A stretch of DNA of 64,000 bases from Candidatus Poribacteria bacterium. Lineage in GTDB: Bacteria; Poribacteria; WGA-4E; GCA-2687025. The notes under the pieces were generated by a model. It saw only the letters and a list, made by a program, of their open reading frames with translations. It was not told where the DNA came from and made no database searches. Where the stretch lies: NCBI GenBank assembly GCA_963665845.2, contig OY762492.1:1664001-1728000 (forward strand), written 5' to 3'. Shown here piece after piece: positions 7,320-24,303 of this stretch. Position 1 is the first letter of the stretch; every line of letters starts with the position of its first letter. The position numbers and the translations under genes are program-made.

Positions 7320-10300
7320 ATGCCTGATTTTTTCAAAGAGCCGATACTGAACTCGCCCTATGAGGAGCCGACGCGCCACTGGGAGCTGGACGAAAAAGGG
7401 CAGCCAACGACGGTTATCCAGAAAGGACGTCGAAGAGCGGACTTCATCACGCCGATACCGAAGGCGAGGCGAGAGCAGGCGAGGTTCGCCATTGATGAAG
7501 GGTACGGGCTGACAACCGACGATCAGCATTACCATGCGTCCATCATCAACCGGATACGGGAGAGAGTGGACGAGTGGCGGGCTTTGCCTGACGAGAAGAG
7601 CTGGCGCGTCTCTCCTCATACGGCGGCGCTATTGAAGCATTGGAGGGCGGGACGGTTTATCAGCTTCAGACCCTTCTTCTGTCAAATGGAGGCGGTTGAA
7701 ACGATCATCTGGCTGACGGAGGTTGCGCCAAAGTTTAACAATCGCGCCGTCAAGGAAATACTAGACAATATCAAAAAGGCGAACGAGGAGGCGAATCCGA
7801 ACCTCAACCGCCTCGCGCTCAAAATGGCGACCGGCGCCGGCAAAACGGCCGTCATGGCGATGCTGATCGCATGGCAGACGGTGAACGCTGTTCGGATGTC
7901 TCGAAGCCCCCGGTTCACGAAGGGGTTTTTGGCGGTCGCGCCCGGCATCACCATCAAAGACAGGCTGCGCGTTCTTCTCCCGAACGATCCCGACAACTAC
8001 TATATTCAGCGTCAGCTCGTCCCAGACAGCATGAGAGGCGACATCAAAAAGGCTAAAGTTGTCATCACAAACTACCATGCGTTCAAAAAGAAGGAACGGC
8101 TCGAAATACAAACAGGGGCGCGCAAGCTGCTGGACCGCGGGGCGCGCGTCAACAGGGATGAAACGGACGGGCAGATGCTGCGGCGCATCATGCCTGAACT
8201 CATGAACATGAAAAACATTTTCATCATGAACGACGAGGCGCACCACTGTTACCGAGAAAAGCCTGAAGCGGAAGCGGAACAGAAAGCGCTCAAAGGGGAT
8301 GAAAAGCAGGAAGCGAAGAACAACCGAGAAGCGGCGCGCCTCTGGATCAACGGCCTCGAAGCGGTCGGACGAACGCTCGGTCCGAACCCCGCGCGCGTCA
8401 TCGACCTGTCGGCAACGCCGTTTTTTCTGCGCGGTTCAGGATACGCCGAAGGGACGCTGTTTCCATGGACGATGAGCGACTTCTCGCTCATGGACGCCAT
8501 CGAATGCGGCATTGTGAAGCTGCCGCGCGTTCCCGTTGACGACAACCTGTCTGACGAGATGCCGACGCTGCGAAACCTCTGGGAGCATATCGCCAAGGAT
8601 ATGCCGAAAAAAGGGCGCAGCAGTTCCCAAACTCTTGACCCTCAACGTCTTCCGAACGAACTGCAAACAGCGTTGGAAGCGGTGTACGGGCATTACAGCA
8701 GGACCTTTGATCAGCATAAAGACGCAGAATTCGAGGTTCTGCCATGCTTCATCGTCGTCTGCAGTAACACCGCCTCCTCCAAGCTGGTGTACGACTACAT
8801 CGCGGGGTACTGGCGGGAAGATCAGAACGGCAAGCCTCATTTTACACAGGGCAAGTTCGAACTGCTGCGCAACTACAACGACGAAGGCAGCCCATTTCCG
8901 ACGCCGAATACGCTGCTCATCGACAGCCGCCAGCTGGAGTCGGGCGACGCGCTGACGTCTGAATTCCGCAAAGCAGCCGACGAAGAAATTGAGCGGTTCC
9001 GGCGTGAAATCACGCGCAGAACAGGGCAGCCCGTCTCCAAAAAGAACATCACCGACGCGCAGATACTGCGCGAAGTGATGAACACCGTCGGCAAAAAGGG
9101 GCAGCTCGGCGCCGATATTCGATGCGTCGTCTCCGTCTCCATGCTGACGGAGGGATGGGACGCGAACAACGTCACGCATATTCTGGGCGTCCGCGCCTTC
9201 GGAACGCAGCTGCTCTGCGAGCAGGTGGTCGGGCGCGCCTTGCGAAGGCAGTCGTATGATCTGAACGACAAGGGGCTATTCAACGTTGAATACGCAGACA
9301 TACTGGGCGTGCCGTTCGACTTCACCGCAAAGCCTGTCCCCGCGCCGCTGACTCCCCCGATCAAAACGACGATGATTCAGGCGCAAAGCCCCGAACGAGA
9401 CGCGCTTGAGATACGCTTTCCGCAGGTCATGGGCTACCGCGTCGACAAGCCGAACGACCGGCTAGCGTTTGAGTTCACCGACGAATCGAAGCTGACGCTG
9501 ACGCCTGACATGGTCGGGCCGACCGTCACGCTCAACGAAGGCATTGTCGGCGAGGGAACCGAACTGACCTTGAATCATCTGAAAACGCGCCGCGCGCAGG
9601 AGGTGGAATATAGCTTGACGCACTACATCTTGATGAAGCGATGGCGCGAACAGGGCGAGGACCCTAGAATGCATCTATTCGGGCAGCTGAAGCGGATTGT
9701 GCAAGCATGGATAAACGAATGCTTTGAATGCAAAGGCGGCACGATGCCGGCGCAGTTGATGTGGCGCAGCGTCGCCGACATGGCATACGAGCGCATTGAG
9801 GCGGCCGTCACGCGCGCCAGCGGCGGAGAGAATCAAATCAAGGCGATACTGAACCCTTACAACGCATTCGGCTCCACCGCGGATGTTCAATTCAAGACCG
9901 CCAAAACGGACCTTTACCGGACCGATCCGCGAAAGTGCCATCTGAATTACGCAGTTCTGGATTCGGGTTGGGAGGCGGAGTTTTGCCGCGCCGCCGAGGC
10001 GCATCCGCGCGTCAAAGCGTATGTGAAAAACGCGGGTCTCGGATTTGAAATTCCTTACAGGTCGGGCGGACAGCGGCGCGTCTATCTGCCCGATTATATC
10101 GTCCAGATCGACGACGGGCGGGGAGAAGAGGATCCGCTGAACCTTGTCGTTGAAATCAAAGGGCTGAAACGCGAATCGGACAGAGAGAAGATCGACGCGG
10201 CGAAAACCTACTGGGTTCCGGGCGTCAACAACCGAGGCGGATGCGGACGCTGGGACTTCATTGAGCTGGACGACCTGTTCGAGATAGAAGCGGAGCTGAA

Positions 10301-10328
10301 GCGGTTGATTCAAGAAAAAAGCAGTTGA
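7320..10328 (+). CDS. Type III restriction enzyme Res subunit (DEAD-like helicase + PD-(D/E)xK nuclease)
   Basis: MATGAGKT, DEAHH, SAT, MLTEGWD, EQVVGRALR, and C-terminal YLPDY...VEIKG. Confidence 0.9.
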   Translation: MPDFFKEPILNSPYEEPTRHWELDEKGQPTTVIQKGRRRADFITPIPKARREQARFAIDEGYGLTTDDQHYHASIINRIRERVDEWRALPDEKSWRVSPHTAALLKHWRAGRFISFRPFFCQMEAVETIIWLTEVAPKFNNRAVKEILDNIKKANEEANPNLNRLALKMATGAGKTAVMAMLIAWQTVNAVRMSRSPRFTKGFLAVAPGITIKDRLRVLLPNDPDNYYIQRQLVPDSMRGDIKKAKVVITNYHAFKKKERLEIQTGARKLLDRGARVNRDETDGQMLRRIMPELMNMKNIFIMNDEAHHCYREKPEAEAEQKALKGDEKQEAKNNREAARLWINGLEAVGRTLGPNPARVIDLSATPFFLRGSGYAEGTLFPWTMSDFSLMDAIECGIVKLPRVPVDDNLSDEMPTLRNLWEHIAKDMPKKGRSSSQTLDPQRLPNELQTALEAVYGHYSRTFDQHKDAEFEVLPCFIVVCSNTASSKLVYDYIAGYWREDQNGKPHFTQGKFELLRNYNDEGSPFPTPNTLLIDSRQLESGDALTSEFRKAADEEIERFRREITRRTGQPVSKKNITDAQILREVMNTVGKKGQLGADIRCVVSVSMLTEGWDANNVTHILGVRAFGTQLLCEQVVGRALRRQSYDLNDKGLFNVEYADILGVPFDFTAKPVPAPLTPPIKTTMIQAQSPERDALEIRFPQVMGYRVDKPNDRLAFEFTDESKLTLTPDMVGPTVTLNEGIVGEGTELTLNHLKTRRAQEVEYSLTHYILMKRWREQGEDPRMHLFGQLKRIVQAWINECFECKGGTMPAQLMWRSVADMAYERIEAAVTRASGGENQIKAILNPYNAFGSTADVQFKTAKTDLYRTDPRKCHLNYAVLDSGWEAEFCRAAEAHPRVKAYVKNAGLGFEIPYRSGGQRRVYLPDYIVQIDDGRGEEDPLNLVVEIKGLKRESDREKIDAAKTYWVPGVNNRGGCGRWDFIELDDLFEIEAELKRLIQEKSS

Positions 10329-10354: not shown

Positions 10355-10389
10355 CTAACAGCGCAATAGGGCGGCGATTGGAGGCGGAC

Positions 10390-10926
10390 ATGAGCGAACG
10401 AAGCGGAACGAAACGAAAACAGCATCGAGACCCCTGGCACGAACTGCGCGCCGCGCTGATCCAGGCGCAGGCGCAGCTGGACGCCGAGCATGAATGGCGG
10501 GAAGGATGGGCGGATCTACTCAACGGCGCGTTGGAGGCGGTTGACAGGTTCGAGGCGCGGCAAAAAGACATACGCCGCCTCAACCCCATCGCGGAGCGGC
10601 TGGCGGTGGAGGAATGCCGCGATGTCCGGCTAGAGCTCGCATACGCCTTGAACGAGGCGCTGGATCGATTGAGAGCCTTGACCAAATTTCGGAGCGAAAT
10701 GCGCCGTCATGCGCTCGCTTTAGAATCGTCGGGCAAAGAAAAAAACGGGTTTGCGGCGGCGCTTCTCCGCGTCAGCCGCTCGCTGGAAGCGGCGACGATT
10801 GAAGATGCCTACAAGGTTGTTGATGATATTCAGAGGGAGAATTCGCTCCAAGCCGCCCGCTATCTGGGGACCCAAATCAAAACGGGCGGGCGGACTTTCA
10901 CACGGGATGAAATGAATGAGCGTTGA
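10390..10926 (+). CDS. Putative antitoxin with long helical N-terminal domain (copy 1)
   Basis: C-terminus IKTGGRTFTRDEMNER resembles PIN-associated antitoxin tails; overlaps the PIN start; three paralogs in the window. Confidence 0.7.
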   Translation: MSERSGTKRKQHRDPWHELRAALIQAQAQLDAEHEWREGWADLLNGALEAVDRFEARQKDIRRLNPIAERLAVEECRDVRLELAYALNEALDRLRALTKFRSEMRRHALALESSGKEKNGFAAALLRVSRSLEAATIEDAYKVVDDIQRENSLQAARYLGTQIKTGGRTFTRDEMNER

Positions 10927-11359
10927 CCATTTTTTGGACTCGAACATCGTCATCTACTACTATGACGATCAAAGTCCCAGAAAGAAAGCAAAAGCGAGGC
11001 GCATGGTGAACAGCGCGCTCGATAATGAAAACGGCTGCGTCAGCTTCCAGGTCGTTCAAGAAACAATGTACGTCATCAGGAAAAAGCTACGGGTGGACGA
11101 TAAGGACGCCGAATTCATGCTGAACAACATACTGCTGCAGCTTTGGGAAGCGAATCCCGTGTGGGAAACCGACCCGACGCCGGAAATGTACCAACGCGCC
11201 TTCGATCTCCATAAACGGCGCGGAATCGCCAACTTCTACGACTGCGTCATCGCCGTAAACGCTCTGGACGCCGGATGCGCCACGATCTACACAGAAGACG
11301 CAGGTCTGCTACACGCCCAGCGGGTTGAGGATGTGGACATCGTCAACCCGTTCAATTAA
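10916..11359 (+). CDS. PIN-domain (VapC-like) toxin
   Basis: FLDSNIVIY, QE, FYDCVI, IYTED PIN acidic motifs. Confidence 0.9.
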   Translation: MSVDHFLDSNIVIYYYDDQSPRKKAKARRMVNSALDNENGCVSFQVVQETMYVIRKKLRVDDKDAEFMLNNILLQLWEANPVWETDPTPEMYQRAFDLHKRRGIANFYDCVIAVNALDAGCATIYTEDAGLLHAQRVEDVDIVNPFN

Positions 11360-11394
11360 AATAGAGACTGAACTCAAAAAACGGAGAGCGGGGC

Positions 11395-11931
11395 ATGGCT
11401 GAACGAAGCGGAACGGAACGAAAACAGCATCGAGACCCCTGGAACGAACTGCGCGCCGCGCTGATCCAGGCGCAGGCGCAGCTGGACGCCGAGCATGAAT
11501 GGCGGGAAGGATGGGCGGAGCTACTCAACGGCGCGTTGGAGGCGGTCGACAGGCTCGAGGCGCGGCAAAAAGACATACGCCGCCTCAACCCCATCGCGGA
11601 GCGGCTGGCGGTGGAGGAATGCCGCGATGTCCGGCTAGAGCTTGGATACGCCCTGAACGAGGCGCTGGATCGATTGAGAGCCTTGACCAAATTTCGGAGC
11701 GAAATGCGCCGTCATGCCATAGCTCTAGAATCGTCGGGCGGAGAAAAAAACGGGTTTGCGGCGGCGCTGCTGCGCGTCAGTCGGTCGCTGGAAGCGGCGA
11801 AGATGGAAGACGCCTACAAGGTTGTTAGCGAAATTCGGAAGGAGAATTCGCTCCAGAGCCTTCGGTATCTGGAGACCCGAATCAAAACGGGCGGACGCAC
11901 TTTCACACGGGATGAAATGAATGAGCGTTGA
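11395..11931 (+). CDS. Putative antitoxin with helical N-terminal domain (copy 2)
   Basis: Near-identical paralog of 10390-10926. Confidence 0.7.
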   Translation: MAERSGTERKQHRDPWNELRAALIQAQAQLDAEHEWREGWAELLNGALEAVDRLEARQKDIRRLNPIAERLAVEECRDVRLELGYALNEALDRLRALTKFRSEMRRHAIALESSGGEKNGFAAALLRVSRSLEAAKMEDAYKVVSEIRKENSLQSLRYLETRIKTGGRTFTRDEMNER

Positions 11932-12126
11932 CCATTTTTTGGACTCCAACCCTTTCAATTCCGCCGTCATTCCCGCTTCTCCTCGTCATTCCCGCTTCTC
12001 CTCGTCATTCCCGCGTAAGCGGGAATCTTAAAGCAACGCAGCCGCCGCGCGCGGCGGAAACCCCCCTGCCCCCCTTTTCAAGGGGGGAGTCTGAAGGATG
12101 TTGACATCGTCAACCCGTTCAACTAA
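11921..12126 (+). pseudogene. Internally deleted PIN toxin; the middle is replaced by REP-like repeats
   Basis: Starts MSVDHFLDSN (11921-11950) and ends DVDIVNPFN* (about 12097-12126), as in the intact PIN genes. Confidence 0.8.
11965..12028. repeat. REP/dRS3-like palindrome family A (GTCATTCCCGCnnAAGCGGGAATC). Other copies near 25710, 35435, 38300, 41465, 44567, 45990, 49822, 49965, 50075, 50161, 53277, 56606, 62959
   Basis: ATTCCCGC-N4-GCGGGAAT hairpin repeated more than 12 times, mostly intergenic. Confidence 0.88.
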
Positions 12127-12164
12127 GATAGACCCTGAACTCAAAACGAAGACGGAGAACGAGC

Positions 12165-15100
12165 ATGGCAAAAAAAGCCCGAACGCCCAAAACGGTCGAA
12201 CACACCAAGCACGAGGACGCCAAACGCAAAAACAACCCCACCGCCGAATTCCAAAACCTGGTCTCTGACGAGATCAAGCGGCCCGTGCCTGTCCATATCA
12301 AACGCCCCAACCCCGACCTGGACCCGCAGCTGGTCTGGCACGGAAAAGACGCAAGCAGTCTAGACGAAATGGTCGTCAACGCGCCATCGCTTTACATCCA
12401 AGAAAAAATACAGCCCAAAGCGATCATCGACGGCCTGATGCGCCTCGCCGAGACGAACGCCCCCGACGAAGACCAAGGCGCCCTCTTCGCCGACTTCAAC
12501 GGCGTCCCCGAAAACGCCCAAACCGAGTTCTATCAGCACGACGCAAAATGGTCAAACCGAATGATACTCGGCGACAGCCTGCATGTCATGGCGTCGCTCG
12601 CCGAACGGGAAAACCTGCGCGGACAGGTCCAGTGCGTCTATATCGACCCGCCCTACGGCATCAAGTTCAACTCCAACTTCCAATGGTCAACGCAAACGCG
12701 CGACGTCAAAGACGGCAACGCGGCGCATATCACCCGCGAACCCGAACAGGTGAAAGCGTTCCGCGACACATGGGAAAACGGCGTCCACTCTTACCTCGGA
12801 TACCTGCGCGACAGAATCACCGCCGCCAGAGAGCTTCTGAACGAAACAGGCTCATGCTTCGTTCAGATCGGAGACGAAAACGTTCACCGCGTCCGCGCCA
12901 TCATGGATGAGGTGTTCGGACCTGAAAATTATATTTCATTGATTACATTTACAAAAACATCACCACTTGGCACCAAGCTTATAGCGAATCGCTGCGATTA
13001 CATTGTTTGGTATGCGCGCGATAAAGAAATCGTAAAATATCGTCCTCTTTTTGTTTCAAAAAATGTAGGACGGGGTACCGCATATTCCCACATTGAATTT
13101 CCTGATGGAAGTAAGCGTAGACTATCTTCCAATGACTCGAATCTGCCTAAAAATATAGATTATTTTGTATTAGGAAATTTATTGTCTACAGGATTTACTA
13201 AAACATGCTACTATGACTTTGACTTCGAAGGGCGGACTGTGCCTCAAGGTAGGTATAGCTGGAAAACCACTAAGAACGGCATGGAGCGGCTAATTCGCAT
13301 GGGCAGAGTATATGGTCAAGGATTAAGGCCTGGATACGTACAAAAATTTTCAGACTTTCCTGTCCAAACACTAGATCATTTATGGAACGACACAGGAGGA
13401 GCTCAAAATCGAAGATATGTTGTTGAAACAACCTCCAAGGTAATTCAGCGCTGCATCCTCATGACGACGGACCCAGGCGACCTTGTCCTGGACCCGACCT
13501 GCGGCTCTGGGACGACGGCGTACGTCGCTGAGCAGTGGGGCAGGCGCTGGATCGTTATCGACACGTCGCGCGTCGCGCTGGCTCTGGCGCGTATGCGTCT
13601 CATGGGGGCGCGTTATCCGTATTATCTGCTGTCCGACACGCCTGAAGGTCAACAGAAGGAGGCGGATCTGGAGCGGCGCGCCGTCTCGGAGGCGCCGACC
13701 TACGGCATGATACGGCAGGGGTTCGTCTATGAGCGCGTCCCGCACATCACGCTGAAGGCGATTGCGAACAACCGCGAGATCGACGAGATATGGGAGCGTC
13801 ATGAGGAGCGTTTGCGTCCGCTTCGAGAGGAGCTGTCGTCCGCCGCCGGTTTGGCGGAGCCGCTGGAGGAGTGGGAGGTTCCGCGCGAACTCCCTGACGG
13901 TTGGCATTCGGCGTCGGAGCCGCTGCTGTCCCGCTTTTGGAGGGATCGCGCCGCGCGTCAGAAGGAGATCGACGCGTCCATCGCCGCGGCGGCGGAATAC
14001 GAGCAGCTGTTCGACAAGCCGTTTGAGGACAAGAGGAAGGTTCGGGTCGCGGGTCCGTTCACGGTGGACAGCTTGTCGCCGGTGCGCTCCGTGCCGGTCG
14101 ATTCGAACGGCGATCCGCGTTTGAAGGAGCAGGAAGCGGCGGAAACGAAAGACTTTGCCGAGACGATTTTGGAGGCGCTGCGGGCGTCCGGCGTTCAGCA
14201 GACCGACAAGGCGGACCGCATCAAGTTTGAGTCGCTGGAGCCGTTCGGCGGCAAGTTTATCGCGGCGGAGGGCGTTTATACGGAGGGCGATGAGAAGAAG
14301 ACGGCGGGGGTGTATATCGGGCCGGAGTATAACGCAGTGTCGGACATCGAATTGACGATGGCGGCAAAGGAGGCGGCCGCCGCCATGCATGACGTCCTGA
14401 TTGCATGCGGTTTCAGCTTCGATCCTCAAGCCGCCAAGCGCCTGAATAGAGGGAGGATGCGGATACTTCATGCGCGCATGAACGCCGATCTGCATATGGG
14501 CGCGGATTTGAAGAATACGGGCATCGGAAACCTGTTCATCATCTTCGGCGAGCCGGACATTACAGTGGGCAGTGAAAAGTGGATCGTGGACAGCGAAGGG
14601 AAATGGATCGCGCCTTATGACATCTTTGCGCTCGTATCGGGACTTGATCGTATGGAAGAAGTCAATGGACTTCGCCGTGAAGATTTACACGCTTACGCGC
14701 GGCTTTCCCGCCGACGAGAGATTTGGGATGATCTCGCAGATGCGGCGGGCGTCGTCGTCGATACCGGCGAACATCGCGGAGGGTCAGGCGCGTCGCACAA
14801 CGGGGGAATTTCTACATTCGCTTGGCATTGCGCGGGGGTCTTTAGCGGAGGTCGAGACCTTTCTGATATTGTCGGCGCGATTGGAGATGATCGGCTCCGA
14901 GAGTTTAAAGCGCTTGTTGACCGACTGCGAGGAGATCAGCAAAATGCTTCACGGGCTGATGAAGTCTCTGGCATCCCGCCGATAGACTCTGTCCACTATC
15001 CACTGACGACTGCCCACTTCCACCAGGTAAGGATAAACGGCGTGGACATCTTTGATCCAAGAAAAGGCGAGCCGAAGAGCCATGACATAGACGGCATCGC

Positions 15101-15347
15101 CTGCTGGTTCATCGACACCGATTACAACGGCGAAAGCTTTTTTGTGCGCCATGCCTATTTCATCGGCGCGGACGACCCGTATAAGCAGTTGAAGACGACC
15201 TTGAAAGCGGAGATCAACCAAGAGGCATGGGAGTCCCTGCGCGGCAACCTCTCGCGCCCGTTTCCGCGCCCGTCTTCGGGGATGATCGCCGTCAAGGTCA
15301 TCAACCGCTTCGGCGATGAGGCGATGCGCGAATTCCAGATTGAATAG
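12165..15347 (+). CDS. Type III R-M Mod subunit (site-specific DNA methyltransferase) with an in-frame insertion of about 150 aa
   Basis: DPPY motif IV, DPTCGSGTT motif I, C-terminal IAVKVINRFGDE; paired with the upstream Res. Confidence 0.9.
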   Translation: MAKKARTPKTVEHTKHEDAKRKNNPTAEFQNLVSDEIKRPVPVHIKRPNPDLDPQLVWHGKDASSLDEMVVNAPSLYIQEKIQPKAIIDGLMRLAETNAPDEDQGALFADFNGVPENAQTEFYQHDAKWSNRMILGDSLHVMASLAERENLRGQVQCVYIDPPYGIKFNSNFQWSTQTRDVKDGNAAHITREPEQVKAFRDTWENGVHSYLGYLRDRITAARELLNETGSCFVQIGDENVHRVRAIMDEVFGPENYISLITFTKTSPLGTKLIANRCDYIVWYARDKEIVKYRPLFVSKNVGRGTAYSHIEFPDGSKRRLSSNDSNLPKNIDYFVLGNLLSTGFTKTCYYDFDFEGRTVPQGRYSWKTTKNGMERLIRMGRVYGQGLRPGYVQKFSDFPVQTLDHLWNDTGGAQNRRYVVETTSKVIQRCILMTTDPGDLVLDPTCGSGTTAYVAEQWGRRWIVIDTSRVALALARMRLMGARYPYYLLSDTPEGQQKEADLERRAVSEAPTYGMIRQGFVYERVPHITLKAIANNREIDEIWERHEERLRPLREELSSAAGLAEPLEEWEVPRELPDGWHSASEPLLSRFWRDRAARQKEIDASIAAAAEYEQLFDKPFEDKRKVRVAGPFTVDSLSPVRSVPVDSNGDPRLKEQEAAETKDFAETILEALRASGVQQTDKADRIKFESLEPFGGKFIAAEGVYTEGDEKKTAGVYIGPEYNAVSDIELTMAAKEAAAAMHDVLIACGFSFDPQAAKRLNRGRMRILHARMNADLHMGADLKNTGIGNLFIIFGEPDITVGSEKWIVDSEGKWIAPYDIFALVSGLDRMEEVNGLRREDLHAYARLSRRREIWDDLADAAGVVVDTGEHRGGSGASHNGGISTFAWHCAGVFSGGRDLSDIVGAIGDDRLREFKALVDRLRGDQQNASRADEVSGIPPIDSVHYPLTTAHFHQVRINGVDIFDPRKGEPKSHDIDGIACWFIDTDYNGESFFVRHAYFIGADDPYKQLKTTLKAEINQEAWESLRGNLSRPFPRPSSGMIAVKVINRFGDEAMREFQIE
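14564..15018. mobile_element. Inverted-repeat-bounded insertion carrying a four-helix-bundle gene
   Basis: 14564-14593 AGTGGGCAGTGAAAAGTGGATCGTGGACAG and 14989-15018 CTGTCCACTATCCACTGACGACTGCCCACT are 25/30 reverse complements with 7-nt periodicity. Confidence 0.7.
14617..14985 (+). CDS. Four helix bundle protein (23S rRNA IVS protein / Avd-like fold), nested in the +1 frame of mod
   Basis: SYRDLIVWKKSM...FPADERFGMISQMRRASSSIPANIAEG...FLHSLGIARGSLAEVET, the family signature. Confidence 0.9.
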   Translation: MTSLRSYRDLIVWKKSMDFAVKIYTLTRGFPADERFGMISQMRRASSSIPANIAEGQARRTTGEFLHSLGIARGSLAEVETFLILSARLEMIGSESLKRLLTDCEEISKMLHGLMKSLASRR

Positions 15348-15457
15348 CCTCCTCCCGCAGGCGCTGTCCGCGTCCATCGGTTTGACAACCCCGCCATCGT
15401 GTATCATTCTTTAACAGCGCGTCATAAGGGCGTCGTCGGCAGCGATGGGAGGCGGAC

Positions 15458-16003
15458 ATGACCGAACGAAGCGGAACGGAACGAAAACAGCATCGAGACC
15501 CTTGGAACGAACTGCGCGCCGCTCTCATCCAGGCGCAGGCGCAGCTGGCGCAGTTGGACGTCGAGCCTGAACGGCGGGAGAACTGGACTCCTCTTCTCGA
15601 CGGCGCATTGGAGGCGGTCAACAGGTTCAAGGCGCGTCAAAAAGAGATACCCGGTCTCCGCCGCGCCGCGGAGCGTCTGGCGGTGGAGGAATGCCGCGAC
15701 GCTCGGAGGGCGTTCGGACGCGCCCTGAGCGAGTCGCTGGATCAGTTGAGAACCCTGACCAAGTTTCGAGGCGAGATGCGCCGTCATGCCCTCGCTCTAG
15801 AATCGTCGGGCGGAGAAAAAAACGGGTTTGCGGCGGCGCTTCTCCGCGTCAGTCGGTCGCTGGAAGCGGCGGCGCTTGAGGATGACTACGATACTCTTCT
15901 GAAAGTTCGGGGGGAGAATTCGGTTCAAATCGGCCGCTATCTGCAGACCCGAATCAAAACGGGCGGACGTACCTTCACACGGGATGAAATGAATGAGCGT
16001 TGA
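15458..16003 (+). CDS. Putative antitoxin with helical N-terminal domain (copy 3, more diverged)
   Basis: Paralog of 10390 and 11395 with the same GGRTFTRDEMNER tail. Confidence 0.7.
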   Translation: MTERSGTERKQHRDPWNELRAALIQAQAQLAQLDVEPERRENWTPLLDGALEAVNRFKARQKEIPGLRRAAERLAVEECRDARRAFGRALSESLDQLRTLTKFRGEMRRHALALESSGGEKNGFAAALLRVSRSLEAAALEDDYDTLLKVRGENSVQIGRYLQTRIKTGGRTFTRDEMNER

Positions 16004-16436
16004 TCATTTTTTGGACTCCAACATCGTCATTTACTACTATGACGATCGAAGTCCGGAAAAGAAAGCAAAAGCGACGCTTCTGGTTGACAGCGCGCTTAAA
16101 AATCAAAACGGCTGCATCAGCTACCAGGTCGTTCAAGAGACAATGTATGTCGTCAGGAAAAAGCTGCGGGTGGACGATAATGACGCCGAAACCATGCTGA
16201 ATGACAGACTATTGCCGCTTTGGGAAGCGAATCCCGCGCGGGAGATCGACCCGACGCCGGAAATGTACCTACGCGCTTTTGATCTCCAGAAACGGCGCGG
16301 AATCGCCAATTTCTATGATTGCGTCATCGCCGTGAACGCTCTCGACGCTGGATGCTCAACGCTCTATACAGAAGACGCGGGTCTGCTCCATGCCCAGCGG
16401 GTTGAGGATGTGGACATCGTCAACCCGTTCATCTAA
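15993..16436 (+). CDS. PIN-domain (VapC-like) toxin, paralog of 10916-11359
   Basis: FLDSN, FYD, YTED motifs. Confidence 0.9.
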   Translation: MSVDHFLDSNIVIYYYDDRSPEKKAKATLLVDSALKNQNGCISYQVVQETMYVVRKKLRVDDNDAETMLNDRLLPLWEANPAREIDPTPEMYLRAFDLQKRRGIANFYDCVIAVNALDAGCSTLYTEDAGLLHAQRVEDVDIVNPFI

Positions 16437-16517
16437 AATAGGGCTGGACTTAAAAAACGGAGAGCGGCGCAATTTGACAACGCGTCAAAGGGCGTTGGCG
16501 GTTGAACGGAGAGTAAA

Positions 16518-17377: not shown

Positions 17378-20300
17378 ATGCGCAAACCCGTCATCGACAA
17401 CCAGGACAAGAGCGATACGCTTCTCGACCGCCTCAAGCCCCGTCTCAAGGGCGCGGACGCCTTGCGCGTCGTCTCCGCCTATTTCTCCATCTACGGCTTC
17501 GGCGCGCTCGCCGACCAGCTCCGCCCCCTCAAAGAGACCCGCTTCCTCTACGGCGACCCAGGCTCCATCGACGACATCGACCCCGGCGAAAAAACCGACC
17601 GCGCCTTCTACCTGCACGATGAACGGCTCGCGCCGACCGAAGCGCTGCGCCAAAAAGCGCTCGCCGAACAGTGCGAGAAATGGGTGCGGCAGCGCCGTAC
17701 CAAAATACGCGCCATCGCCCGCTCCAATTTCCTCCACGGCAAAATGTGGCATATCGACAAAAAAGACGCGCCGTTCGCCGTCGTCGGAAGCTCCAACTTC
17801 ACCCAGCGCGGACTCGGCGCCGGCGCGGCGCCGAACATTGAGATCAACCTCGCCGCGGACGACCCGCAAACATGCAAAGAACTGCGCGACTGGTTCGACG
17901 ACCTATGGAACGACGAGACGAAGGTCATAGATGTCAAACTGGAGGTTCTGAAAGCGCTGCGCCGCATCGGGCGCGAATGGGGCGCCGAAAGCGTCTATTT
18001 CAAAACGCTCTATGCGCTGTTCAAAGACGACTGGCAGGCGATCCAAGACAGCGACGCGGAACTCAAAAGCCTCAAACTGACCGACGCGCAGATATGGAAC
18101 GCGCTGTACCAGTTTCAAAAAGACGGCGTCCACAGCATTCTCAAAAGCCTAAATAGCCACAACGGATGCCTGCTCGCCGACAGCGTCGGCCTCGGAAAAA
18201 CGTACGCCGCCCTCGCCGTCATCAAGTATCACGAACTGCGCAATGAGCGCGTCCTCGTGCTCTGTCCGCGCAAACTGCGGGAGCAGTGGGCGTTGTATCT
18301 CAGCGCGGCGGGGCAAGAAGGCAACCCGTTTCTAAAAGACAGGTTCAACTACTCGCTGCTCTCCCATACCGACCTCTCCCGCGACAAAGGAATCGTCGGA
18401 AACATCGATCTCGCCAACTTCAACTGGAGCTCCTTCGATCTGGTCGTCATCGACGAATCGCACAACTTCCGCAACCCGGACGGGAAGCGTTACCAAAAAC
18501 TGATCAAAGAGATCATCAAGGAAAGCGTCAACACAAAAGTGCTGATGCTCTCCGCGACCCCCGTCAACACCTCCCTCATCGACCTGCGCAACCAGATCTA
18601 TCTCATGACCGAAGGGCGCGACGACGCCTTCGCGCCAAGCCTCAACATACACAGCCTCAAACGGACCCTCCGAAACGCCCAAGAGCAGTTCAACGCATGG
18701 AGTCCTGAAGACGGCAAACAGGGGCTTCTGGAGACGCTCGGCGCCGACTTCCAAAGCATTCTCGCCGCCGTCACCGTCTCCCGATCTAGAAAGCAGATCG
18801 AGACCTTTTACAGAGCCGACATGGAACGAGTCGGCGCCTTCCCAACACGCGACGACCCTGTCAACCTCTACCCCCCCACCGACACAGAAAAACAGCTCTC
18901 CTATGAGAAGCTGGCGGAGCAGATTGAGCAGTTCCAGCTCTCCATCTACACCCCCACCAACTATCTCATCAGCCTAGCGAGGCGGGCGGAACTGGACGCG
19001 GAAAAGAAACGGCGCAACTTCAACCAGCAAGACCGAGAACGGTTCCTGATCGGAATGATACGGGTCAACTTCCTCAAACGGCTCGAAAGCGCCCCCCACT
19101 CGCTCAAGTTGACGCTGCAGCGGACGGTCAAAAAAATCAGCGATCTCATCGACAAGATCGACCGTTACAGCGGGCGGCCGTCCAGCGACGCGGAGCTGAA
19201 CGAAGAGACGGCGCCTTACGAAACCGATGTGGAGGAAGACGACGATCTCATCGTCAACAAAGGCAAAAATCCGTTCAAGCTAAGCGAACTGGATGTCCAA
19301 ACATGGCGCGAAGACCTTGTCAAAGACAGGGACATCCTGAACGAAGCGCTGCGTCAGGTGGCGGCGGTCGCGCCCGAACGAGACGGCAAACTGGATGAGA
19401 TCAAGCGGCTGATACGCCGGCGCGCCGAGTACCCGTCCCTCGACCAAAACGGCAAGGAATGCCGCAAGCTGATTGTCTACACCACCTTCAAAGACACGGC
19501 GCTGTATCTCTATCGCCAGCTGGAGCCGCTGACGAAGGAGCTGGGGTTGAAGATGGCGATGGTCGCGGGATCGGAAACGCATACGGAGCATGGCGACAAC
19601 AATTTCCACGCCATACTCAACAACTTCGCCCCCTTCGGACGCAAGGGCGAAGGCGCCGCCGCCGACCCCGACATCGACCTGCTCATCGCCACCGACTGCG
19701 TCTCGGAAGGCATGAACCTCCAAGACTGCGACCGCATCGTCAACTACGACATCCACTGGAACCCGGTGCGCATCATTCAGCGGTTCGGGCGCATCGACCG
19801 CATCGGCAGCAAAAGCCGCTCCATAAAGATGACGAACTTTTGGCCGACCGAGGACATGGAGGTATACCTGAAACTGGAAAGCCGCGTCCGGTCGCGCATG
19901 GCGCTGGCGGACATCGCCGCCACAGGCGAAGACGACCCGCTCGACATCCAAGAGGAGCTGCAACTCGCCGAAAAAGAGCTGACCCTCCGATACAAGCAGC
20001 TGCGCAAAATGAAAGAGGAAGGCGCCTACATAGAGGAGCTGGACGACGCGCCCGCCATGAGCGACTTCTCCTTCGCGCGCTTCGTCGGGCAACTGAACGA
20101 ATACCTGCGCCAACGGCAATACGAGCTGGAGAACATGCCGGACGGCGCCTACGCGGTCGTCAAGCGGGACGAGGGCGCGGAGCCGGGCATCCTCTTCTTC
20201 CTGCGCCAAACAAACGCCGACCCTGAAAACCCAGACAAATCCGCAAGCCCCGTCGCCCCGCATTACGCCGTCTATGTCCAAGACGACGGAACGATACGCC

Positions 20301-20635
20301 ACGGATGCGCCAACGCCCAGCAGATACTCGACATCTTTGAAGCCGCCGCCGTCGGCAAAACGGAACCGATACAGGACATGTGCGACCTGTTCAACATGGA
20401 AACGGAAAACGGACAGAAAATGGCGCGGTACGACGATCTGATCCAAGCCGCGGCAGACGACATCAAAACGGCGTACGCCGCCGCCATTGAAAAAAATATA
20501 GCGGGCGGCGACCGCAACTTCATGCTGCCCGTCTACGAGAACGCGCCGCGAGACCTGAACGACTTTACACTGGTCACATGGCTTGTTATACTGGACGCCG
20601 ATCATGAACGTTATGAAACGGGGTACGGCGTATGA
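17378..20635 (+). CDS. PLD-nuclease domain + SNF2-like helicase
   Basis: LHGK...VVGSSNFT (PLD), LADSVGLGKT, DESHNFR, SAT, SEGMNLQ, QRFGRIDR. Confidence 0.88.
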   Translation: MRKPVIDNQDKSDTLLDRLKPRLKGADALRVVSAYFSIYGFGALADQLRPLKETRFLYGDPGSIDDIDPGEKTDRAFYLHDERLAPTEALRQKALAEQCEKWVRQRRTKIRAIARSNFLHGKMWHIDKKDAPFAVVGSSNFTQRGLGAGAAPNIEINLAADDPQTCKELRDWFDDLWNDETKVIDVKLEVLKALRRIGREWGAESVYFKTLYALFKDDWQAIQDSDAELKSLKLTDAQIWNALYQFQKDGVHSILKSLNSHNGCLLADSVGLGKTYAALAVIKYHELRNERVLVLCPRKLREQWALYLSAAGQEGNPFLKDRFNYSLLSHTDLSRDKGIVGNIDLANFNWSSFDLVVIDESHNFRNPDGKRYQKLIKEIIKESVNTKVLMLSATPVNTSLIDLRNQIYLMTEGRDDAFAPSLNIHSLKRTLRNAQEQFNAWSPEDGKQGLLETLGADFQSILAAVTVSRSRKQIETFYRADMERVGAFPTRDDPVNLYPPTDTEKQLSYEKLAEQIEQFQLSIYTPTNYLISLARRAELDAEKKRRNFNQQDRERFLIGMIRVNFLKRLESAPHSLKLTLQRTVKKISDLIDKIDRYSGRPSSDAELNEETAPYETDVEEDDDLIVNKGKNPFKLSELDVQTWREDLVKDRDILNEALRQVAAVAPERDGKLDEIKRLIRRRAEYPSLDQNGKECRKLIVYTTFKDTALYLYRQLEPLTKELGLKMAMVAGSETHTEHGDNNFHAILNNFAPFGRKGEGAAADPDIDLLIATDCVSEGMNLQDCDRIVNYDIHWNPVRIIQRFGRIDRIGSKSRSIKMTNFWPTEDMEVYLKLESRVRSRMALADIAATGEDDPLDIQEELQLAEKELTLRYKQLRKMKEEGAYIEELDDAPAMSDFSFARFVGQLNEYLRQRQYELENMPDGAYAVVKRDEGAEPGILFFLRQTNADPENPDKSASPVAPHYAVYVQDDGTIRHGCANAQQILDIFEAAAVGKTEPIQDMCDLFNMETENGQKMARYDDLIQAAADDIKTAYAAAIEKNIAGGDRNFMLPVYENAPRDLNDFTLVTWLVILDADHERYETGYGV

Positions 20636-23600
20636 TGCGAGCCAGAATCGAGGCGGGACTGGAAAAGGCGGCGGAGGCGGACAACTTCCACGACGGAGCC
20701 AACCAGCTGCTCAAGACGCTCGGATATGAAAGCGGGCGGCGTGGGCTGACAACCTTCAAACCCAAAAAGTTTGTCGAAGAATTTCCAAATCCGCGCGGCG
20801 CCGGAACGCAAACCGAATTGAGATTTCTGAAGGAGGTACAATCGACCCGCATCCTGTTTCAAATGACCGACGACGAGGTGAACCAAGCCGCCCAGAGACG
20901 AACAGGCGAGATGACGCTATTTGAAAGCGGCGGGTCAGAGATGGACGAGTCGGTCGATAGAAGCTTCTTTTTTGCGTCGGTGGAGCTGAACGGCGAGTCG
21001 TATTCGCGCGGAAAATACGCCGAATTCACCCGCGAACTGAATAAACGGCTCCCCATCGCCACCGTCGCCCTCTTTAGAACGCAAAGCCGCCGCATCTCCA
21101 TCGCGCTAGCGGATCGCCGGGAACATAAAGCCGAGAAAGGAAGAGCCGTACTCGGGCGCGTCTCCCTCCTGCGCGAAATCGACCCCGGCAACATGCGCTC
21201 CGACGCCAACATACTGGAAGACCTGACCCTAAACAATCGAATCGAATGGATGCAAGACCTGGCGAAAAACGCCGAAAAGCGCAACTTCGACGGGCTGCGC
21301 AAAGCATGGCTCGACACGCTCGACACCGAATCGCTCAACAAGCGGTTCTATAAAGAACTGAAAGCATGGTTCGACCGCGTCGTTGAGGAGGCGACGTTCC
21401 CGACGACGAAAACGCAAACGCAGCAGGATCATGCTATCCGCCTCATCACCCGCATGCTGTTCATCTGGTTCATGAAAGAAAAGGGGCTGGTGAACAAGAA
21501 CCTGTTTAATCCAAAGCAGGTCGCGCCGCTGCTGCGGAATTGGAACATCGTCAGCGGGGATTCCTACTACCGAGCCGTCCTCCAAAATCTGTTCTTTGCG
21601 ACGCTCAACACGCCCATTGATCTGCGCGACTTCAGCAGGTTAGACAATTCGACGCGTCACATCCCGAATCCGTACAGGTATGCAGATCTGATGACCGACC
21701 CCGTCGAGCTAAGGGATCTCTTTAAGAAAACGCCCTTTATTAACGGCGGCCTCTTCGAGTGTCTTGACGATCTTGAAGGCGTCAATCCAGGCGGAAAACA
21801 GGTCGACTGCTTCACCGACGATACGGATCAACGCAAAGAGATGTCCGTTCCCGACGATACGGATCAACGCAAAGAGATGTCCGTACCCAACAGCCTCTTC
21901 TTCGACAAAAAGAACGGGCTGTTCAATCTGTTTAAAGGGTATAAGTTCACCGTCGAAGAGAACACGCCGATAGAGCAGGAGGTGGCGCTGGACCCCGAAC
22001 TGTTGGGAAACGTGTTTGAAAACCTGCTGGCGGAGATGAACCCTGAAACGCGCGACACCGCCCGTAAAATGACCGGCTCCTACTACACCCCGCGCGACGT
22101 CGTGAACTACATGACGAAAGAAGCGCTGGCGGCGGCGCTCGCCCAAAAGGTTCAGTCCGACCCCAAAAACGCCGATGACTGGGATGAAAACCTGAACGTA
22201 CTTCTAGACGACGAGAAGGCATGGGACGAAGCGGGAGATCTGTTTTCAGACGGGGAAAAGCGGCGGCTGACGGAAGGCATCGCCGACCTGAAAATACTGG
22301 ATCCTGCTGTCGGGTCCGGCGCCTTTCCGATGGCGGCGCTCCTGAAATTGACGATGGCGCTGCGACGCATAGATCCAAAGAACGAATTATGGGAGGATGT
22401 TCTGCTGAAACGCGCACGCGATCAAGCGGAGAAGGTCATCGGCCAGGAGCAAGATAACGAGCGGTACCATAAACAGATGGGGGAGATCAAGAAGACCTTT
22501 GACAGATTACGAGATTCAGATTACGGGCGGAAGCTGTTTCTCATTCAAAACAACATCTTCGGCGTCGACATTCAGCGCATCGCATGCCAGATCGCCAAGC
22601 TGCGCTTCTTCATCACCCTCGCCATCGAACAGGAATCGAACAAGGACGAGGATAATTATGGCATCAAACCGCTGCCAAACTTGGAGACCCGCTTTGTCGC
22701 CGCCGACGCGCTCCTGTCGCTCCATCCGAAATCCGATAAACCTCAGAAACTGAGATCCGAACTGACCGATCAACTTAAACAGGAAATACATGAGAACCGC
22801 CGGCGGTATTTTCTAGCCAACGAGCACGACGAAAAAAATATCCTCAAAGGCGAAAATGAGATTCTGCGGGGAAAGCTGTCGAAACAGCTGAAAACGATGA
22901 AATGGACGGACATAGCGGCGGAGCGAATCGCCAACTGGGATTCGTTCAGCCAAACAGACGACCCCGCCGACTGGTTCGACCCAGAGTATATGTTCGGCGT
23001 CCGATACGGGTTCGACGTCGTCATCGGCAACCCGCCCTATGTCCAGCTGCAGAAAAACGGCGGAGAGCTGGGGGAAAAATACCAAAACACAGGCAAAGAC
23101 CGAAAAACACGTTTTGAGACCTTCGCCCGCACAGGCGACATCTACTGCCTCTTTTATGAGCAGGCGCTGAACCTGGCGGCGGAGGGCGGATGCGCCTGCC
23201 TCATCACCTCCAATAAATGGATGCGCTCCGACTACGGCAAAAAGCTGCGCGACCTGTTCGTTGAAAAGATAAGCCCCGCCCTGCTGATCGATATGGGTCC
23301 GGGCGTTTTTGAGGCGTCGGTCGATACGAACATTCTGCTATTGAGGAAAGCCGCCCCCCTTCCCAACGCTGTCATAAACAGCGTTGAGATGAAGCCCGAC
23401 TTCAGCCGGCAGCAGGGCGGCGTCGGCGAGTATGTCCGGAAGAACGGCGTTGAGATGCCGGTTCCGGACGCTGGATATCCATGGACGATCGCCTCCGCCG
23501 TTGAGCTGAACATTCTGAAGAAGATGCGCGATGTCGGGACGCCGCTAAAGGAATGGGATGTAAACATCAATCGCGGCGTGACCATCGGATGCAATGACGC

Positions 23601-24303
23601 TTTCATCATTGACGCCGACACGCGCAGTCGTTTAGCGTTTGAAGATCCTAGATCAGACGAGATACTGAAGCAGATTCTGCGCGGACGCGACATACAAAGA
23701 TGGGTTCCAGAATGGGCAGGGCTGTGGTTGATAGATTCTCATAATGGCTTTGGCGATACGCCGCCCATCGATATGGACGACTACCCAGCTGTCAAAGCAT
23801 GGCTAGACCATTTCTACCCTAGACTTGAGAAACGTCAAGATAAAGGGAAGACTCCTTACAACCTCCGCAGCTGCGCTTACCATGAGGCTTTTTCCGAAGA
23901 GAAGCTGATGTGGAAAGATATTGCCACAAGCGGATATTTTACCTACGTCAACGTACCCATGTTTTGCAACAATACCAGTTATATTATGACCGGAACTTCG
24001 CTTAAATACCTATGCGCCGTCTTGAATTCTCGATTGGTAACGTGGTTTATGAGAAAAGCCGCTGCTGGGCTGGGACAGAAAGCGATTCGCTGGATCGCAA
24101 CGTATGTTAATCGCCTGCCCATCCCGCGTCCGCCGACGCCGGAAGTGGAGTCCGCGCTGGTTCTTTTAGTGGACGCAATCTTGTCGAAGAAGGCGTCCGA
24201 TCCAGGGGCGGATGTGTCGCGGTTGGAGGAGAAGATTGACGGCATGGTGTATGATCTTTACGGCTTGACGGAGGAGGAGCGCGCTGCCGTTTCCGGCGGC
24301 TAG
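20632..24303 (+). CDS. Type IIG/Eco57I-like N6-adenine DNA methyltransferase with C-terminal TRD
   Basis: GSYYTP, LDPAVGSGAF, IGNPPY, TaqI-C-like tail VYDLYGLTEEE. Confidence 0.88.
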   Translation: MMRARIEAGLEKAAEADNFHDGANQLLKTLGYESGRRGLTTFKPKKFVEEFPNPRGAGTQTELRFLKEVQSTRILFQMTDDEVNQAAQRRTGEMTLFESGGSEMDESVDRSFFFASVELNGESYSRGKYAEFTRELNKRLPIATVALFRTQSRRISIALADRREHKAEKGRAVLGRVSLLREIDPGNMRSDANILEDLTLNNRIEWMQDLAKNAEKRNFDGLRKAWLDTLDTESLNKRFYKELKAWFDRVVEEATFPTTKTQTQQDHAIRLITRMLFIWFMKEKGLVNKNLFNPKQVAPLLRNWNIVSGDSYYRAVLQNLFFATLNTPIDLRDFSRLDNSTRHIPNPYRYADLMTDPVELRDLFKKTPFINGGLFECLDDLEGVNPGGKQVDCFTDDTDQRKEMSVPDDTDQRKEMSVPNSLFFDKKNGLFNLFKGYKFTVEENTPIEQEVALDPELLGNVFENLLAEMNPETRDTARKMTGSYYTPRDVVNYMTKEALAAALAQKVQSDPKNADDWDENLNVLLDDEKAWDEAGDLFSDGEKRRLTEGIADLKILDPAVGSGAFPMAALLKLTMALRRIDPKNELWEDVLLKRARDQAEKVIGQEQDNERYHKQMGEIKKTFDRLRDSDYGRKLFLIQNNIFGVDIQRIACQIAKLRFFITLAIEQESNKDEDNYGIKPLPNLETRFVAADALLSLHPKSDKPQKLRSELTDQLKQEIHENRRRYFLANEHDEKNILKGENEILRGKLSKQLKTMKWTDIAAERIANWDSFSQTDDPADWFDPEYMFGVRYGFDVVIGNPPYVQLQKNGGELGEKYQNTGKDRKTRFETFARTGDIYCLFYEQALNLAAEGGCACLITSNKWMRSDYGKKLRDLFVEKISPALLIDMGPGVFEASVDTNILLLRKAAPLPNAVINSVEMKPDFSRQQGGVGEYVRKNGVEMPVPDAGYPWTIASAVELNILKKMRDVGTPLKEWDVNINRGVTIGCNDAFIIDADTRSRLAFEDPRSDEILKQILRGRDIQRWVPEWAGLWLIDSHNGFGDTPPIDMDDYPAVKAWLDHFYPRLEKRQDKGKTPYNLRSCAYHEAFSEEKLMWKDIATSGYFTYVNVPMFCNNTSYIMTGTSLKYLCAVLNSRLVTWFMRKAAAGLGQKAIRWIATYVNRLPIPRPPTPEVESALVLLVDAILSKKASDPGADVSRLEEKIDGMVYDLYGLTEEERAAVSGG
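21815..21886 (+). repeat. In-frame 36-bp tandem duplication (DDTDQRKEMSVP x2)
   Basis: Two direct copies differing at one base. Confidence 0.9.

Follow-up and report, generated by a model that had tools for sequence, protein, structure and literature searches.

A four-helix-bundle gene lies within an open mod gene

The window analysed here (the whole stretch of 64,000 nucleotides of Candidatus Poribacteria contig OY762492.1) encodes on its forward strand a type III-like restriction–modification system of the BPTD_3080 type. It comprises a res gene (7320..10328, forward strand), the product of which scores 1254 bits against the BPTD_3080-family model NF046055 (cut-off 800), and a linked N6_N4 methyltransferase gene, mod (12165..15347, forward strand). 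The 1060-aa mod product, read from an open frame spanning the cassette described below, matches PF01555 over residues 155–474 in a profile search, and what we take to be its DPPY and SAM-binding motifs are both intact. An AT-rich block of mod at about 12920–13450 is unlike the corresponding sequence of a close relative (P0003), as is expected of a swapped target-recognition domain. Three diverged copies of an ORF of about 180 aa flank mod (10370–12146 and 15438–16456; 81–96% identity over 300 nt); they have no Pfam match, two of them precede a PIN-like gene, and such direct repeats on either side of mod could permit its deletion or exchange. Further downstream (17378–24303) are a 1085-aa helicase-like and a 1223-aa methyltransferase-like ORF, both recognised by eye only.

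As an earlier sequence-only reading had noticed, a second gene (14617..14985, forward strand; 122 aa from an ATG) is nested in the +1 frame of mod. Its assignment to the four-helix-bundle family is borne out by scores well over the cut-offs of PF05635 (135.6 bits, cut-off 33.8) and TIGR02436 (133.6 bits, cut-off 24), while the protein falls below those of the Avd models NF033474 (24.7 versus 80 bits) and PF22296 (29.5 versus 40 bits). PDB entry 2GSC (XCC0516; five chains) is a sequence relative (E 3e-22). The nested gene is the sole PF05635/TIGR02436 member found in the window genome, and a search of that genome for a free-standing source copy returned none.

The inner gene is enclosed by two complementary heptamer arms (14564..14593 and 14989..15018, forward strand) with a predicted duplex energy of −46.6 kcal/mol. 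The arms pair at 25 of 30 positions, as the sequence-only reading had counted, and this exceeds every one of 60 codon shuffles of the surrounding kilobase (best 30-nt score 23); the region folds with z = −3.6. Ahead of the inner ATG lies a purine-rich stretch (14595..14613, forward strand). In the family this site is Shine–Dalgarno-like (mean −8.2 kcal/mol versus −4.2 in control windows), and it is weak in the window copy (−5.5 kcal/mol, with 6 of 18 control windows equally strong).

Searches for other functions within the cassette were negative. A Pfam scan of the mod-frame translation of 14565–15017 found no family and hence no intein Hint domain, an Rfam search of 14200–15400 gave no match at E <= 1, intron models included, and profile searches of the cassette detected no nuclease, recombinase or reverse transcriptase domain. 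No internal promoter or terminator stood out above chance. Misassembly is ruled out, given that contigs from four runs (three samples of one study, possibly the source of the assembly) are identical to the window over 13400–15119. Another run (X5) contains an approximately 97% identical strain with five changes crowded into the 3′ arm (15008–15016), perhaps the sign of a hotspot of mutation or recombination.

Empty alleles delimit the cassette

We compared the window with Mod relatives from genomes (the best 80 of 571) and with 97 metagenomic loci collected by a junction pattern that fixes insert codons 2 and 4 and so samples only alleles with such arms and frame. Both conserved anchors are present in 151 of these 178 loci, of which 94 are filled and 57 empty; the other 27 were dropped for want of an anchor, mostly through too little DNA, and at least three of them (L128, L150, L154) reach stops soon past the junction. 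The cassette occupies one position in all 94 filled loci. As judged by record titles, filled genome loci include members of Chloroflexota, Planctomycetota, Gamma- and Deltaproteobacteria, Lentisphaerales, Cyanobacteria and Poribacteria. The 57 relatives without the insert rule out that it is a conserved Mod domain.

In the window, the mod-frame segment between the anchors (14562..15038, forward strand) is 159 aa long. Empty alleles have 14–33 residues there, 15 in 45 of the 57, and open filled alleles differ among themselves by 21 nt (456 versus 477). A contig from RNA run X7 (one contig, depth 3.1) is an empty allele of the window's own Mod lineage: it differs at 3 positions over the 91 nt downstream and has 31 other letters between 14560 and 15024, which encode the usual empty-allele loop. 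Delimited against this closely related allele, the cassette spans 14561..15023 on the forward strand, with a net gain of 432 nt. The boundaries proposed from the window alone were narrower. Removal of 14565–15017 does take out 453 nt in frame, as computed before, but would leave 8 residues between the anchors, fewer than in any of the empty alleles; the heptamer cores also reach farther out on the 3′ side in the family than in the window copy. The target-site duplication that had been put forward for checking is absent: no direct repeat was found at the cassette ends, and the alignment of filled with empty alleles shows that the cassette replaces loop codons.

AlphaFold2 models, both of middling quality (mean pLDDT 64 and 58), place the insertion site at the predicted tip of a β-hairpin in the Mod C-terminal domain. 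The flanking strands are modelled at residues 54–60 and 64–75 of the empty allele and at 51–64 and 204–220 of the filled one, with pLDDT of 81–92 at the insert ends and mostly 29–59 mid-insert. The arm-coded peptides, that of the 5′ arm among them, are predicted to lengthen both strands, with a disordered passenger loop of ~85 residues in the middle. A Foldseek search with the filled domain gave no match at E <= 0.001.

The Mod frame avoids stops and the inner protein is under purifying selection

Of the 94 filled loci, 86 have an open mod frame, as do 72 of 77 clusters formed at 90% identity; neither loci nor clusters are independent, given the relatedness of the genomes. Under synonymous recoding of the inner gene, the mean chance of an open mod frame is 0.09–0.13 per allele. 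The reservation that high GC3 makes such a frame less improbable was therefore right for the window copy taken alone, the chance of which is about 12%, and the case depends on its relatives. Among the eight broken filled loci, two owe the break to a heptamer slip and one to a point stop; small indels account for the others. Counted in open alleles only, a T precedes AA, AG or GA at 0 of 1123 sites, as compared to 905 of 3806 elsewhere. This frame relation is the cheap one, because stops in the −1 frame need a T at the third codon position of the inner gene.

The inner gene is intact in 64 of the 72 open clusters (57 by pattern, 7 by inspection); in the remaining eight it has been lost by deletion or a stop, with mod still in frame. 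All 17 type A alleles have its ATG at the same position, and so do 36 of the 38 type B alleles; the other two begin with TTG. Between the members of 12 disjoint close pairs, changes that leave the inner protein as it is, while altering Mod, have a rate of 0.22 per site, and those that alter the inner protein a rate of 0.03–0.05, so the constrained product is the inner protein, which is under purifying selection. The Mod-frame peptide is near neutral save for stops (rates of 0.22 and, from only 8 changes, 0.24 per site), and is mostly a passenger obliged to avoid them. Where the cassette extends beyond the inner gene, at its two ends, type B alleles keep mod-frame residues G5, F146, P147 and L148 constant or nearly so while their synonymous codons vary freely, which points to translation. 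Elsewhere in the arms the nucleotide is kept regardless of the residue: the Val9 codon is GTG in 55 of 55 alleles and the third position of codon 156 is A in 37 of 38, pointing to selection on the heptamer itself. Codon 15 of the inner gene, a four-fold degenerate Ser, is TCA in all 55 type A and B alleles, reflecting either a Mod-frame Asn or a nucleotide motif.

Cassettes and their flanks have different ancestries

The mobility proposed on the basis of the window alone is supported, between alleles, by mismatched ancestry. Types A, B and C each form a single group on the inner-protein tree, while they are dispersed over the Mod-flank tree (20 of 21 and 33 of 42 changes required). Support for the latter tree is weak, with stars on 18 of its 116 branches, and those branches by themselves force only five changes each for A and B. 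Three pairs of loci (L091/L118, L002/L010 and L181/L185) are 92–94% identical in their flanks and 61–67% in their cassettes, the drop being located at the cassette ends; conversely, the window cassette is 80% identical to that of L002, with flanks at 67%. The compared alleles differ at other variable blocks too, and ordinary recombination in the conserved flanks therefore suffices. We infer that this is how the cassette moves among mod alleles, as do the other variable blocks that these genes contain.

Cargo-less mini-hairpins and heptamer arrays accompany the cassette

Of 71 filled loci, 36 (28 of 58 clusters) contain mini-hairpins built from the cassette heptamer and lacking cargo, as does 1 of 51 empty ones; these counts ignore kinship. 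The mini-hairpins occupy about five recurring mod loops upstream of the cassette, and mod is open from mini-hairpin through to cassette in 71 of 74 cases. Part of this link could stem from inheritance with the allele. A second full cassette at other mod loops was found in none of the 151 loci, and no mini-hairpin was found in the window mod.

Elsewhere in the window genome there is one lone arm, intergenic (L296:2322-2356; G000:C1 near 2453825). This heptamer run has neither a partner arm nor a four-helix-bundle gene, and lies upstream of a small ORF on the opposite strand. In four genomes, 22 of 24, 8 of 8, 5 of 6 and 2 of 5 triple-heptamer matches lie on the cassette contig, although these matches overlap and count the cassette's own arms, and the pattern reads identically backwards, which renders the built-in control uninformative. 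The fifth genome, G061, which carries L002, has 231 such matches chromosome-wide, many in one 25-kb cluster, and its nested gene is the only family gene found. Arm arrays thus concentrate at the cassette in three of the five genomes; the nested copy is the only family copy in two of the five.

Nested cassettes occur in other host genes in a single frame

The proposed survey for four-helix-bundle genes nested in other coding sequences showed the frame relation of the window cassette in three further host genes. Among 96 full-length family genes, chosen by inner protein and with the seven already known nested loci excluded, the −1 frame is open across the gene in 12 and the +1 frame in none. Flanks match as inverted repeats (at least 18 of 24 positions; raw count) in 70. 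Seven of the 96 lie inside a host ORF that reaches at least 60 residues beyond both sides: two in this Mod family, three in a second Mod subfamily, at an equivalent site, one in an Eco57I-like methyltransferase (L221) and one in the error-prone polymerase DnaE2 (L227). All seven are same-strand and share the single frame in which stops are silently removable. The L221 cassette adjoins the SAM-binding region and is kin to the mod-nested group; the nested genes of the three methyltransferase hosts cluster on the tree (support 90). The DnaE2-nested gene, in the same frame relation and with a different heptamer, lies elsewhere on it, and a second DnaE2 (P0122) carries the insert of the first at 62% identity.

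Three antisense frames are also open across surveyed genes; the one that was scanned has no family match. No match to the inner family was found in 50,697 phage records. There are 47 matching plasmid records, and among the 40 matches listed none has a second annotated gene beneath the match. A profile of the passenger peptide hit 186 proteins at E <= 1e-5; those listed, 120 in number, have either PF01555 or no assigned domain and add no further hosts.

Probable dual coding and its alternatives

The cassette, consisting of an arm, a four-helix-bundle gene and a complementary arm, is lodged inside a type III-like mod gene. We consider it likely that both frames are used: ribosomes would read Mod straight through the IVS-like cassette, giving Mod a passenger loop of about 150 residues, and synthesis of the inner protein would begin at a start of its own, in the +1 frame. 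Of the several routes suggested from the sequence by which a unit with no transposase or reverse transcriptase could sit in protein genes without breaking them, dual coding agrees with the stop avoidance in the mod frame and with the purifying selection on the inner protein. RNA-level removal, ribosome bypass and precise DNA excision are not supported: removal needs no open frame, and the host frame is kept stop-free, with lengths in multiples of three, across the family. The least certain part of this reading concerns the inner protein. By homology a pentamer, it might bind the heptamer hairpin and help to place arm copies in nearby loops; such an activity would explain why the inner gene is retained.

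That the cassette is cut from the mRNA and the ends rejoined, or that the ribosome hops over the hairpin, so that Mod lacks the insert, appears very improbable. A strong terminal stem, heptamer cores kept as nucleotides (the invariant Val9 GTG) and type B arms whose pairing weakens when partners are swapped (from −37.5 to −35.2 kcal/mol; 0 of 300) would suit this reading, although in type A the swap makes no significant difference (93 of 300). Neither the shunning of stops and frameshifts within the insert nor the 8 residues left by a cut, too few to rebuild the empty loop, is expected of it, and there is no Rfam match. Contigs contain no joined form of the window's own strain, and the sole joined RNA contig with a readable middle, that of run X7, is ruled out as a splice product: its 31 middle letters are foreign to the cassette and code for the usual loop. 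In bypass of the T4 gene 60 type, a stop or unreadable codon directly after the take-off site closes the host frame; here that frame is open in 72 of 77 clusters. Another reading, on which the insertion was a one-off, the frame opened by chance through high GC3 and the gene is dead or dying, draws on the 12% chance for the window copy. The family data refute it, and we give it next to no credence: some alleles in the open clusters have a GC3 near 0.5, selection acts on the inner protein and the nesting recurs in other hosts.

The remaining alternatives concern what else the cassette might do. RNase III might cut the stem without re-ligation, lowering mod mRNA and releasing a small RNA with the inner gene, and this can coexist with read-through of uncut mRNA. 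We regard it as possible, if not the expected outcome. The Coxiella IVS, of like anatomy, is RNase III-cut according to the excerpts of PMC4990558. The longest contigs that three metatranscriptomes contain from a close strain fall between the arms (14598–14980, 14596–14937 and 14745–14964), while a DNA contig extends to 15117. However, that DNA contig likewise begins inside the 5′ arm (14577), one of the RNA contigs has a loose end at 14961, the material consists of contigs rather than reads, from a related strain in one study, patterns of this kind are graded by the search tool as less than a weak hint, and efficient cutting would silence an open and conserved mod. The between-arm contigs are a lead only, fitting stable or excised loop RNA and, equally, assembly breaks at the arms; insert versus flank RNA coverage was not taken as evidence of levels, the contigs coming from one study. 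Somewhat more doubtful is the view of the cassette as a selfish element that homes actively, in which the inner protein would direct both its copying into empty mod alleles and the writing of arm copies in the vicinity. The intact inner gene in 64 of 72 open clusters, the sharp exchange boundaries, the near-restriction of mini-hairpins to filled alleles, the concentration of arm arrays at the cassette and the grouping of the nested genes of three methyltransferase hosts are all consistent with homing. On the other hand, the cassette has no nuclease, recombinase or reverse transcriptase domain and no target-site duplication, differences in other variable blocks make ordinary recombination enough, no second full cassette occurs at other loops, and mini-hairpins at recurring loops may be inherited with the allele. 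The suggested switch on restriction–modification activity, by which one or two slipped heptamers turn Mod off and three restore it, we deem unlikely. It gains slight support from 3 of 97 filled loci in which mod is broken by gain or loss of whole units (L020, −7; L121, +7; L181, −14), from the open state of L014, a cluster mate of L121, and from open alleles 21 nt apart. Against it, three loci are few, the units are imperfect and not numerous, and the window strain has no length variant in four runs, the contigs of which would drop rare variants.

Beyond dual coding, one may speculate, with less confidence than in the hairpin-binding role itself, that one lineage of the cassettes has become specialised for DNA-methyltransferase genes as insertion-made overlapping genes, and that its pentameric protein, bound to heptamer hairpins, copies these into neighbouring DNA with no transposase or reverse transcriptase of its own. 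If this were true, the copying protein would be the missing source of bacteria's dispersed heptamer repeats and a route to new loops in host proteins. The near-exclusive link between cassette and mini-hairpins offers a direct test of both the role of PF05635 and the origin of heptamer repeats.

Comparison with known systems

To our knowledge, long same-strand nested genes in bacteria with both frames under selection are rarely documented. The window presents a case in which the nested gene arose by insertion of a ready-made gene, and the frame of nesting is predictable. Annotation pipelines report the outer ORF only, which makes the inner gene invisible. In the openly accessible papers and preprint texts covered, we found no description of four-helix-bundle genes nested in protein genes.

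Type III mod genes vary by swapping of target-recognition domains and by phase variation through slippage of in-gene repeats. The cassette resembles this in that variable blocks are exchanged between conserved flanks and slippage breaks the frame; it differs in what is exchanged, a hairpin that bears a gene and lies in the C-terminal domain, and in having repeats that are short, imperfect and inverted.

PF05635 proteins are known from rRNA inserts (excerpts of 10.1101/2024.02.27.582315) and as relatives of Avd (PMC10053308, in part), and the portion of PMC8700078 considered merely lists such genes. Avd itself is described in the available parts of 10.1101/2023.10.23.563531 and PMC10053308 as a pentameric barrel binding a DGR RNA element; unlike it, the inner protein is under the Avd cut-offs and there is no reverse transcriptase inside the cassette. 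Dispersed bacterial heptamer repeats are, in the passages drawn from PMC4679880, tandem 7-nt units of unknown origin, thought to have spread horizontally by a mechanism that is not evident. The cassette arrays, in contrast, are tied to a four-helix-bundle gene, and neither 'helix bundle' nor 'intervening' occurs in that paper.

The closest likenesses are to two kinds of element. As summarised in excerpts of PMC4990558, 23S rRNA IVSs (Coxiella, Leptospira) share with the cassette a length of about 430–460 nt, a terminal stem with a PF05635 ORF in the loop and heptamer repeats of variable copy number in the arm; that of Coxiella has a 28-bp stem, heptamers and an S23p ORF. However, the host of the cassette is a protein-coding gene, mod, not an rRNA gene. 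The IVSs are excised by RNase III and not re-ligated, whereas the cassette's host frame stays open, and the Coxiella ORF is reported as decaying, whereas in the cassette the start of the inner gene is conserved and purifying selection acts on it. Rickettsia palindromic elements (RPEs) are, in the sections of PMC2229807 consulted, multi-copy, 105–146 bp long and without a gene of their own. Like the cassette, RPEs and MITEs form hairpins and are fused in frame, translated within the host protein and tolerated, and the cargo-less mini-hairpins are the same kind of thing as RPEs. Taking RPEs and MITEs to be gene-less elements of 100–200 bp with many genomic copies, we find in the cassette the terminal inverted repeats and the in-frame fusion to host genes, but a length of about 460 nt, a conserved gene of its own in another frame and a single copy in the window genome. 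The cassette is thus built like an S23p-bearing rRNA IVS and tolerated like an RPE, and is a member of neither class.
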